A DNA stretch of 64,000 bases. It comes from an uncultured Omnitrophica bacterium. Its GTDB lineage: Bacteria > Omnitrophota > Gorgyraeia > JACQQV01. Where the stretch lies: the NCBI GenBank assembly GCA_947085655.1, contig CAMTXH010000007.1, positions 46,085 through 110,084 on the forward strand, given 5' to 3'. The number at the start of each line of letters is the position of its first letter. The first letter of the stretch is position 1. Of this stretch, positions 26,619-28,295 are shown piece by piece. A program made the translations under genes and the position numbers. The notes beneath the pieces were generated by a model. That model saw nothing but the letters and a program-made list of their open reading frames with translations, had not been told where the DNA came from and did no database searches.

Positions 26619-28295
26619 GTGAAACACCGGTTTTGGCTTTTGGCGGTTGTTTTTCTCCTTTACGCCAATATCCTCCCGAATCCCTTTGTCTGGGATGACC
26701 ATATTTTCATTATCCACAATGAATACATCCGGGATTGGCGCAATATCCCCCTCCTTTTTCAATCCGATTTTTTCAACTATTCCCTTAAGGAAACCGCTTT
26801 CGAGTCGGGGGGCTACTACCGCCCTCTTGTCATGCTGGTCTACACGTTCGAATTTTTGATCTGGGGAGAATCACCTTTCGGGTATCATCTGGGAAGCCTC
26901 CTTCTTCATCTGGCCAATACCCTCTTGGTTTACACCCTCCTTCTGAAACTTTTCAACCAAAAAGCCGTTGCCCTTTTGGGAAGTCTTCTTTTCGCGGCCC
27001 ATCCTTTGCAGACAGAGGCGGTCTCTTATCTTCCGAGCCGGGGAGACCTCCTTTCGACCCTTTTCGGCCTCGGGGCGTTCTTGTTGTTCCTTTCGGAGAG
27101 ACGGGTGTTTCGCTGGTTTTCCCCGGTTCTTTTCGGAATGGCCCTCCTTTCCAAAGAGAGCGCGGTGATTTTTCCGGTCCTTCTTTTAGGGTATGAAATG
27201 TGCGTCGGATTCTTCCGGAACAGGGAACGGAACCGGATTCATCTTGCCCATTGGGGAGTCTTGACGGCGTATTTTTGGATTCGGCTTTTTTACCTTCCGA
27301 TGTTCACCGTTCCTCCGGAGGGGACTGTTCCTCCTTTTTGGGTCCGGCTCGCCTCCATCCCAAAACTTATTTTCGCCTACGGACGACTTCTTCTTTTTCC
27401 GCATCCGCTTCATCTGGAGCGGAGCATGCCGCTTCAAACCGCTTTCTGGGATTTGGGGACGTTTGCCTGGATCACTCTTTTGGGAGGACTCTTTTGGTTT
27501 GGAAACCGATTTTGGAAAAATGAACGCCTCCTTCTTTTCGGAGGGATCTGGTTTTTGGCCGGGATGGCCCCGGTTTTAAATATTGTCCCCCTTTACCCCT
27601 CCATGGCGGATCACTACCTTTATCTTCCCTCGATCGGGCTTTTTGGAATGGTCGCTTTCGGTCTTCATCGATGGTTCATGCGCCTTTCGTCTGAAAAAAT
27701 TAAAAAAGTTTTTCTTTTTCTCGGGGCGGGGCTTTTAATTTTTTACGGCGGCGGGGTGGTTAACCGGAACCATGATTATGCGGATGAACTCCGGCTTTTT
27801 GAAAAGACCATCCGCTACGCCCCTCAAAGCGCCAATCTGCGGAATAATCTTGGTGCGGCTTATATGTCGCAGGGTAAAATAGAAGAAGCGCTTCGTGCCT
27901 TTCAAGCGTCGCTCGCACTCAACCCGAGACAGCCGAGGGTCTGGGCGAATCTGGGGACAGCCTACCGCGAGATCCGGGATTATGAAAATGCCCTCCTTTT
28001 CATTCAAAAGGCGATTTCCCAGGACCCGGGTCAGCCGGTTTTCTGGAACAAACTTGGACTCACGTATGCCGAGATGGAAAAGACCCAGGAAGCAGAGGGA
28101 ACCTTCCGGCGGGCTCTTGAAGAAGATCCCTTTTACGGAGAGGGGTATTATAACCTTGGAGTCATGTATTGGAGAAAGGGAGACTTCCAAAAGGCGAAAG
28201 AGGTCTGGGAAGAGGGGCTAAAAAAGACCCCTGACTATCCGATGCTGAAGCGTTGGGCACTCCCTCTGATTCAAGACTTGTCAAAAGGGAATTGA
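26619..28295 (+). CDS. GT-C-fold (PMT/TMTC/ArnT-like) polytopic membrane protein with C-terminal TPR repeats
   Basis: GTG start 8 nt after the pilC stop. About 10 TM helices, with a first extracytoplasmic loop 'NPFVWDDHIFI' (the DD motif of GT-C enzymes) and 'GGYYRPL'. The C-terminal roughly 180 aa are TPR repeats ('AYMSQGKIEEALRAFQASLALNPRQPRVWANLGTAY ...'). Confidence 0.55.
   Translation: MKHRFWLLAVVFLLYANILPNPFVWDDHIFIIHNEYIRDWRNIPLLFQSDFFNYSLKETAFESGGYYRPLVMLVYTFEFLIWGESPFGYHLGSLLLHLANTLLVYTLLLKLFNQKAVALLGSLLFAAHPLQTEAVSYLPSRGDLLSTLFGLGAFLLFLSERRVFRWFSPVLFGMALLSKESAVIFPVLLLGYEMCVGFFRNRERNRIHLAHWGVLTAYFWIRLFYLPMFTVPPEGTVPPFWVRLASIPKLIFAYGRLLLFPHPLHLERSMPLQTAFWDLGTFAWITLLGGLFWFGNRFWKNERLLLFGGIWFLAGMAPVLNIVPLYPSMADHYLYLPSIGLFGMVAFGLHRWFMRLSSEKIKKVFLFLGAGLLIFYGGGVVNRNHDYADELRLFEKTIRYAPQSANLRNNLGAAYMSQGKIEEALRAFQASLALNPRQPRVWANLGTAYREIRDYENALLFIQKAISQDPGQPVFWNKLGLTYAEMEKTQEAEGTFRRALEEDPFYGEGYYNLGVMYWRKGDFQKAKEVWEEGLKKTPDYPMLKRWALPLIQDLSKGN

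Follow-up and report, generated by a model that had tools for sequence, protein, structure and literature searches.

What does a membrane-bound, glycosyltransferase-like protein do in the middle of a type IV pilus (T4P) gene cluster? The question is raised by an open reading frame (ORF) in a stretch of 64,000 nucleotides from an uncultured Omnitrophota bacterium (this whole stretch is called the window below). The ORF lies between pilC and two pilin genes and encodes a membrane domain of the GT-C glycosyltransferase type followed by tetratricopeptide repeats (TPRs). A sequence-only reading of the window had proposed a candidate pilin glycosyltransferase of a "non-PglL type" or, alternatively, a TPR scaffold for the PilQ/PilMNOP complex. 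The first proposal is still the best explanation, and a survey of synteny has strengthened it: the gene keeps its position in related genomes, and pilus-linked members of its family fall into at least six clades. The novelty implied by "non-PglL type" has to be given up, as the pilin-modifying enzyme TfpW, a GT-C protein with TPRs encoded beside pilA, is already known. We put at about one half the probability that the product is an accessory pilin O-glycosyltransferase that uses a polyprenyl-phosphate sugar and selects its substrate through its TPRs; activity, donor, acceptor and role are here argued from what was observed, namely the fold and topology, the conserved motifs, the place in the operon, a lineage-specific occurrence and a linkage to pilin genes that recurs. 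The best explanation of its origin is recruitment of a member of a bacterial TMTC-like family (PMT_2 plus TPR) as an accessory gene of the T4P cluster.

The gene begins with a GTG codon at 26619. An AGGA Shine-Dalgarno sequence lies 5 nt before this start and overlaps the stop codon of pilC, so that pilC and the GT-C/TPR gene would be closely coupled in translation; the adjacency to pilC described earlier is real, with a gap of 7 nt (the pilC stop codon ends at 26611) rather than 8. An identical protein (P0001) in GCA_964374045.1, of whose contig CAYJWX010000002.1 the window forms a part, is called from a TTG corresponding to 26640, 21 nt later, which gives 551 aa. The GTG is to be preferred, because a start at the TTG would clip the first transmembrane (TM) helix. 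The identical entry and more than 1000 homologues argue that the ORF is not a chance one; the closest named relatives are proteins from Omnitrophota metagenome-assembled genomes. Pfam places four TPR stretches at aa ~405-536 (TPR_1, E-value down to 2e-30), which bears out the C-terminal TPR array seen by eye. The sole family match in the membrane part is PMT_2, at 26.7-27.5 bits against a cutoff of 26.1. PMT_2 and DUF1736 (PF08409) had both been suggested as checks on the N-terminal domain; hmmscan of aa 1-380 at E<=10 returns PMT_2 alone and no DUF1736. Wzy_C has no Pfam match in the ORF (26619-28295), NCBIfam has no match for the N-terminal membrane domain, a profile of that domain finds nothing among PDB sequences at E<=10, and tblastn of plasmids gives a single irrelevant archaeal match. 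The TPR domain matches consensus TPR, the TPR domain of OGT, and MamA among PDB sequences and in Foldseek.

An AlphaFold2 (AF2) model of the full-length protein, made from 55 homologues, reaches a mean confidence (pLDDT) of 92.6, and one of the N-terminal domain alone reaches 80.3. From the helix map of the model and the distribution of lysine and arginine, the membrane domain has 11 TM helices (the sequence-only reading, right about the domain, had counted about 10), with the N-terminus in the cytoplasm and the TPRs in the periplasm. The canonical TPRs number four (aa 405-434, 439-468, 473-502 and 507-536), with flanking or capping helices. The extracytoplasmic loops (EL) are EL1 at aa 19-85, EL2 at ~137-143, EL3 at ~179-180, EL4 at 225-278, with an amphipathic juxtamembrane helix at aa 240-259, and EL5 at 321-336. 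Conservation was read from three alignments, A1 to A3, of 55, 15 and 13 homologues, A2 being diverse and A3 closer. The motifs VWDD (aa 24-27) and YYRPL (aa 66-70), which had been placed in the first loop by inspection, do lie in EL1, and both are invariant or nearly so over the 55 homologues. D26 is invariant in A2 and A3, D27 in A3, and each is at least 90% conserved in A1. Invariant or nearly invariant are, in all, D26-D27, Y67-R68-P69, H128-P129..E133, R141-x-D143, K179-E180, Y254-x6-P261 followed by L264/E267/R268, P318, and H332-x-x-Y335-x-P337. By the model and the charge distribution, the conserved catalytic-type motifs and the TPRs are all on the periplasmic side. The protein thus has the multi-pass GT-C fold and the conserved acidic motif in the first extracytoplasmic loop by which the GT-C superfamily is recognized. 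Because no catalytic-type residue has been lost from the T4P-linked orthologues, we infer that the ORF encodes an active inner-membrane GT-C glycosyltransferase.

The gene stands at the end of a compact row of T4P genes (Table 1), in which those from 20416 to 25400 overlap or are set apart by 0-22 nt. After its stop codon comes a 240-nt spacer to pilin 1, which holds a sigma-70-type promoter. The hexamers of this promoter are invariant in 7/7 orthologous intergenic regions, from loci both with and without the GT-C gene. The 7-nt gap to pilC and the separate pilin promoter assign the GT-C gene to the pilB-pilC transcription unit. The two downstream genes are much as had been described: both encode N_methyl prepilins, neither of which has a Cys, and the fraction of serine plus threonine (S+T) is 0.22 in pilin 1 and 0.19 in pilin 2 against a window background of 0.11. 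Their peptides include TPPSYPTNLAALSNSTPPYIDTALAGATASGSAK, and pilin 1 has a conserved loop, TPPSYP...S(T)PPYID. The 5' untranslated leader of pilin 1 (~28401-28535) differs between loci, being ~135 nt long in those that bear the GT-C gene versus ~50 nt elsewhere; the long form contains a conserved block, GGGGGTCA(T)GGACTTAT.TATAGGGTTT, directly 3' of the invariant promoter, which could be a regulatory leader element. A T2SSB Pfam match falls within the pilM-pilQ block (29479..33788).

Table 1. Coordinates of features in the window.
Feature	Position	Strand	Evidence or remark
GT-C/TPR gene	26619..28295	+	GTG start, 558 aa; ORF and translation; Pfam PMT_2 and TPR
GT-C membrane domain, aa 1-386	26619..27776	+	11 TM helices
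D26-D27 (GAT GAC), EL1 acidic pair	26694..26699	+	presumed catalytic base and metal site; conservation
Periplasmic TPR domain, aa ~390-555	27786..28283	+	Pfam TPR_1 2e-30; AF2 helices
Pilin promoter, sigma-70-type	28372..28400	+	TTGACA-17 nt-TATACT, extended -10 TG; 11/12 consensus matches
Pilin 1 (prepilin; GTG 28536 or ATG 28545)	28536..28991	+	N_methyl 1.1e-08; candidate acceptor
Pilin 2 (prepilin)	29082..29546	+	N_methyl 3.1e-05; candidate acceptor
GGDEF gene	18998-20404		Pfam
pilT-like ATPase	20416-21501	+	Pfam T2SSE
MshEN-domain protein	21523-21981	+	Pfam MshEN
pilB1	21985-23700	+	Pfam T2SSE, MshEN
pilB2	23700-25400	+	Pfam T2SSE, MshEN
pilC (T2SSF platform protein)	25400..26611	+	Pfam T2SSF 1.6e-67
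pilM	29479/29503-30615	+	Pfam PilM_2 on identical NCBI contig
pilN	30612-31286	+	
pilO	31279-31851	+	Pfam PilO
pilP-like	31808-32191	+	
pilQ secretin	32142/32208-33788	+	Pfam Secretin
Wzy_C protein	216-1517		Pfam
MurJ/Wzx-like flippase	4153-5670		
DegT aminotransferase	13916-15007	-	
WecA-like GT4-family initiating transferase	16600-17691		

The gene holds this position throughout a group of close relatives and is missing outside it. All orthologues (42-56% identity) for which flanking DNA was available lie between pilC and the same two pilins (loci L002/L003, L004/L005, L009, L010, L011, L014 and L018), L002 having a second copy in tandem; the next relative, P0014, at 39% identity, has no T4P linkage. 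(The contig of P0014 carries an RtcB gene broken by an intein, at L006/L007:1-1237.) A reverse survey was started from PilC instead of from the GT-C gene. The tier of PilC proteins at 71% identity or more coincides with gene-bearing loci (e.g. L161), and in the tier at 60-64% (other Omnitrophota, ~61%) the GT-C gene is missing in 4/4 loci with DNA. In these, the pilins (L159, L160, L162) or pilM (L158) come straight after pilC, and the clusters are otherwise colinear, GGDEF-pilT-MshEN-pilB-pilB-pilC-...-pilMNOPQ-RNase G. Since colinear sister clusters exist without it, the GT-C gene is an insertion, specific to this lineage, that separates pilC from the pilin promoter; it ranks as accessory rather than as a core component of the pilus machine.

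The pilins on the two sides of this divide differ in one respect that may be telling. Between lineages that have the GT-C gene and those that lack it, the pilin 1 sequences share 75-78% identity. In 3/3 gene-less loci (L159:8352-9340, L160:8300-9646, L162:6388-7444) it has Cys47 and Cys105 (numbering of the mature protein), which presumably form a disulfide; in 5/5 gene-bearing loci both are replaced, Cys47 by Met or Leu and Cys105 by Val or Leu. Pilin 2 goes from 1-2 Cys in gene-less loci to 0-1 in gene-bearing ones. It looks from these sequences as though loss of the pilin disulfide coincides with gain of the putative glycosyltransferase, a pattern that would fit a glycan assuming the stabilizing role.

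Linkage to pili also recurs far outside this group. The membrane-domain profile collects 134,775 representatives of 50%-identity clusters at E<=1e-3, and 60,536 at E<=1e-30; in databases these relatives are usually named "tetratricopeptide repeat protein", and some "ArnT family glycosyltransferase" or "protein O-mannosyl-transferase". In a metagenome scan with alignment A3, T4P genes were found in 15/69 loci, far above what random placement would give if, as we estimate, the background is a few per cent of loci. In 10 of the 15 the family member is just 27-34% identical to the window protein, and in a neighbour-joining tree the T4P-linked members occupy six or more separate clades, with unlinked members interspersed. 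One recurrent arrangement (L029/L032/L038, L031/L034, L044) is pilC-pilS-pilR-pilA, 60 nt, two tandem GT-C/TPR genes, then pilD, minor pilins and pilMNOPQ; the copies fall into a pair of sister clades, and would therefore reflect an old duplication retained in pilus clusters. Elsewhere the GT-C gene follows a pilin after 114 nt (L045), two GT-C genes follow pilT and a pilin-like gene (L023), or the gene comes after pilQ-pilB-pilC-pilT (L042). In L035 a pilin is followed by a fused GT2-methyltransferase ORF (L035:2962-4164) and then by the GT-C/TPR gene; that ORF is a candidate polyprenyl-phosphate-sugar synthase or sugar-modifying partner. T4P-linked GT-C/TPR genes often stand in tandem pairs, as at L002:6425-8008 and 8001-9698, L029:5226-6992 and ~7001-9600, L031:152-3786, L044:6932-10485, and L137:5451-9599.

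A search of named genomes with the PAK pilin gave 80 pilA loci from Gammaproteobacteria and Betaproteobacteria (a set with none from PA7, P. indica, Azotobacter beijerinckii, Acinetobacter venetianus, Teredinibacter or Kingella). Family members lie beside pilA in only 1 species among these, Dyella choica, where two genes (665 and 697 aa; HMM E-values 9e-34 and 3.6e-31) begin 22 nt after pilA. The first of the two proteins shares 23% identity with the window protein over 476 aa, with the DD, RPL, KE and EH..Y columns aligned; homologues of the Dyella protein come from Rhodanobacteraceae only among the matches listed. The commonest large ORF downstream of the 80 pilA genes encodes a multi-TM protein of 460-560 aa, TfpO-like by size alone. 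The recurrence of GT-C/TPR genes next to pilA, which the sequence-only reading had asked about for related lineages, is thus found both there and in distant lineages, Dyella choica included.

How might such an enzyme work on a pilin? Enzymes of the PMT_2, TMTC and ArnT type typically use polyprenyl-monophosphate monosaccharide donors. The donor would be a polyprenyl-phosphate sugar, probably an undecaprenyl-phosphate monosaccharide, made in the cytoplasm and then flipped to the periplasm. K179 in EL3, R141 in EL2 and H332 in EL5 would hold its phosphate, E180 and E267/H265 (EL4) a divalent cation, and D26/D27 in EL1 would activate the Ser or Thr hydroxyl of the acceptor. The four periplasmic TPRs would recruit that acceptor; it would most likely be the (pre)pilins encoded downstream, caught while still anchored in the membrane and not yet drawn into the fibre. 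The glycan may sit on the pilin's exposed alpha-beta loop or beta-sheet, TPPSYP...STPPYID being a candidate region, and, by analogy to TfpW and TfpO, it may stabilize the subunit and hide the pilus from phages specific to pili.

A number of observations weigh against a pilin glycosyltransferase. The gene is co-transcribed with pilB and pilC and not with the pilins, and it lies upstream of them. No gene for a polyprenyl-phosphate-sugar synthase or a small flippase is evident beside it, and none is clearly identifiable in the window. Family membership alone says nothing of the acceptor, because the family is huge and most of its members are away from T4P genes; T4P genes are missing from many loci whose 7-kb flanks are complete, and the family overall is not pilus-specific. 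The literature searched reports no experimentally characterized bacterial member and no biochemistry for the family. The correlation with Cys loss is probably a single evolutionary event, and pilins beside GT-C genes are not disulfide-free in general, having 0-4 Cys in other lineages. The richness in Ser and Thr that had served as a pointer to these pilins turns out not to mark the gene-bearing lineages, S+T being 0.18-0.24 in both groups: gene-less sister pilins are equally rich, and it is the Cys-free state that tracks the gene. Kinship with TfpW would be one of described architecture and position, and tfpW lies downstream of pilA, whereas the window gene lies upstream of the pilins in the pilB-pilC operon.

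An active GT-C O-glycosyltransferase in this position may act not on pilin, or not on pilin alone. Its acceptor may instead be minor pilins, PilQ, PilP or PilO, or a wide range of proteins of the periplasm and outer membrane, which would suit a gene in the transcription unit of pilB and pilC, the nature of TPR domains as generic protein binders, and the lack of T4P linkage in most family members, whose ancestral acceptors must then have been something else; in L042, L044 and L031, moreover, the gene is near pilT/pilC or minor pilins and not at pilA. We nevertheless regard another acceptor as unlikely, since direct adjacency of pilin and GT-C genes recurs independently with gaps of 22-240 nt (the window group, L029, L045, L023 and Dyella), and TfpW, the sole characterized pilin-adjacent enzyme of the same architecture, modifies pilin with restricted specificity. 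Less probable again is a glycan- or lipid-modifying GT-C protein, ArnT- or GtrC-like and acting on lipopolysaccharide or a surface polysaccharide, that is a mere passenger in the pil operon. The C-terminal TPR domain points to a protein partner, the gene is outside the polysaccharide cluster that lies 9-26 kb upstream, and tight T4P linkage in at least six clades (15/69 loci, against the few per cent expected) ill fits hitch-hiking; what speaks for such a passenger is the presence of that large cluster, the PMT_2/ArnT-type similarity, the "ArnT family glycosyltransferase" labels of relatives in databases, and the fact that three-component glycan-modifying GT-C systems are common (PMC11127046).

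Very improbable, finally, is a non-catalytic assembly factor, whether a pilotin like PilF, PilW or Tgl or a scaffold for PilMNOPQ, for which the membrane domain would be only an anchor. No separate pilotin gene is visible in the pil cluster, and NCBIfam reports partial TPR matches to PilW (TIGR02521, 65 bits) and Tgl (48 bits), but these are far under the respective cutoffs of 154 and 225 and do not surpass the match to MamA, which indicates generic TPR similarity. The protein has no lipobox signal peptide, its N-terminus being the 11-TM enzyme fold, and the strict conservation of catalytic-type residues in T4P-linked orthologues argues for catalysis. The sister Omnitrophota have the same pilMNOPQ set without the gene, so that the machine does not need it; the PilQ/PilMNOP scaffold proposed at the outset is weakened accordingly. 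Modification of pilin remains the best reading.

The source of a sugar may be looked for elsewhere in the window. A surface-polysaccharide cluster (216-17691) encodes, besides the proteins in Table 1, two GT2, three GT4, a GT9 heptosyltransferase, WbqC, a PIG-L deacetylase and several methyltransferases; it is a possible source of the glycan. Its Wzy_C protein, which had been noted from the sequence and is confirmed, could be a WaaL ligase, a polymerase or a PglL-type O-oligosaccharyltransferase. Two GT2 ORFs (5671-6618 and 7734-8696) were considered as donor synthases and set aside, not being clearly like ArnC, GtrB or DPM1. The region from 46 to 63 kb has nothing relevant to a donor pathway. 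It contains a CdaA-type diadenylate cyclase (DAC) gene followed by one for a DHH/DHHA1 phosphoesterase (55099-57388), a pair for synthesis and degradation of cyclic di-AMP, and a MoxR-type AAA ATPase gene followed by a DUF58/VWA_2 gene (60733-62624) in a BatA-like, aerotolerance-type operon; the next ORF is at 62621-63583.

Upstream of pilC, the row from 17757 to 25400 consists of an HD_5 protein, a HAMP-GAF-GGDEF cyclase, the pilT-like ATPase, a stand-alone MshEN protein of 152 aa, and two tandem PilB paralogues that bear MshEN. The order GGDEF-pilT-MshEN-pilB-pilB-pilC is also found in L002, L159 and L160, and the HD-domain gene is kept in L004. This GGDEF/MshEN gene order suggests that pilus extension is under the control of cyclic di-GMP.

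Pilin glycosylation in Pseudomonas determines how stable the pilus is, what surface chemistry it has and how well pilus-specific phages are resisted. If the enzyme of the window glycosylates Omnitrophota pilins, the TfpW paradigm would extend beyond a few Proteobacteria to an uncultured phylum, and pilins would supply a concrete, testable acceptor for part of a huge uncharacterized family (~135,000 clusters). Near-identical sister pilins, with the gene and no Cys pair in one lineage and without the gene but with the Cys pair in the other, amount to a natural experiment. A bolder and doubtful generalization is that TMTC-like GT-C/TPR enzymes form a widespread, largely unrecognized class of pilin O-glycosyltransferases recruited repeatedly across phyla, and that in the Omnitrophota lineage studied here glycan stabilization has replaced the Cys47-Cys105 disulfide; the recruiting lineages may include Omnitrophota, those with pilS-pilR-pilA-type loci, and Rhodanobacteraceae. 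The mechanism is not new and function is argued from context; the main interest lies in the breadth of pilin linkage within a huge unstudied family and in the contrast between Cys-containing and Cys-free pilins.

Among known systems, the eukaryotic TMTC1-4 protein O-mannosyltransferases (CAZy GT105), for which motifs M1-M7 have been defined (Eisenhaber et al. 2021, PMC7801869), share with the window protein 11 TM helices and C-terminal TPRs on the non-cytoplasmic side. Conserved in the window protein are M1 (DD), the YRP part of M2, M3 (RxD), M4 (KE) and M7 (D/E-H/R-x-x-Y; ERxxY in TMTC). The residues D26/D27, Y65-R66-P67, R139/D141 and K186/E187 of human TMTC2 correspond to D26/D27, Y67-R68-P69, R141/D143 and K179/E180, and motif spacing is nearly identical over the first ~190 residues; TM3 reads SLLFAAHPLQT in the window protein and SLLFAVHPIHT in TMTC3. 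The DW of M5, in contrast, is replaced in the equivalent loop by H265-x-E267-R268, which resembles the H-E-H metal site of ArnT (cited in PMC7801869), M6 (PxxP) is only approximated by P318-x5-P324, and the DUF1736 loop between TM7 and TM8 is unmatched. The window protein also has four TPRs only, and is bacterial and periplasmic; its donor cannot be dolichol-phosphate-mannose, nor its acceptors cadherins. The TMTC-type architecture claimed by the sequence-only reading stands in its 11 TM helices, its TPRs and motifs M1-M4 and M7; strict membership among the TMTC proteins fails on DUF1736. As judged from its sequence, the window protein is TMTC-like in architecture and in most active-site motifs and differs in its lack of DUF1736.

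PglL and TfpO (PilO) resemble the proposed enzyme in O-glycosylating pilin at the membrane, facing the periplasm, from a lipid-linked donor, and tfpO is likewise a pilA-adjacent accessory gene. They belong to the unrelated Wzy_C family, however, which the window ORF does not. PglL and TfpO transfer preassembled undecaprenyl-diphosphate-linked oligosaccharides. ArnT (GT83) modifies lipid A and has no TPR domain, and actinobacterial and fungal PMT enzymes (GT39) have a MIR domain in place of TPRs. The cyanobacterial Ogt (TPR plus GT41) is encoded next to pilA and is needed for pilin glycosylation (PMC9306852; PMC12288463). It was rejected as a relative, GT41 having the GT-B fold: Ogt is a soluble cytoplasmic enzyme with UDP-GlcNAc as donor, N-terminal TPRs and no membrane GT-C domain.

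The closest parallel is TfpW, of P. aeruginosa Pa5196 and P. paraeruginosa PA7, a GT-C protein of 646 aa with 11 predicted TM helices, an essential DDX motif in periplasmic loop 1, the motif YX6PFX7P in loop 4 and a sizeable C-terminal TPR domain in the periplasm, whose gene is immediately beside pilA (Villela 2020, bioRxiv 10.1101/2020.04.19.049825). According to the same work, TfpW is required and sufficient for O-arabinofuranosylation of pilin, is restricted in its pilin specificity, is best templated by ArnT for the membrane part and by the OGT TPR domain for the C-terminal part, and is reported to be important, through glycosylation, for pilin folding and stability. Glycosylation of the pilin, whether by TfpW or by TfpO, protects from pilus-specific phages (PMC11841053). 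Set against the published description of TfpW, the window protein has the same 11-TM GT-C domain, acidic DD(X) in loop 1 and periplasmic C-terminal TPRs; the same pattern of ArnT and OGT TPR structural templates recurs, and the gene is again a pilin-adjacent, lineage-variable accessory, here 240 nt upstream of pilin 1. The loop-4 motif of TfpW is only approximated by Y254-x6-P261-H-x8-P271, with a spacing one residue longer, and orthologues have PF or PY at this place. Differences lie in length (558 aa and only four TPRs in the window protein), in host (Gammaproteobacteria for TfpW, Omnitrophota here) and perhaps in the sugar: none of the window ORFs scanned with Pfam is a D-arabinofuranose donor gene (DprE1, DprE2 or PPPRS), a result that speaks for the window only, and the sugar is for this reason probably not D-arabinofuranose. 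It would appear that the window gene is, most likely and with no new mechanism, a further TfpW-like, pilin-associated GT-C/TPR glycosyltransferase, found in an uncultured phylum and at a new position in the operon.

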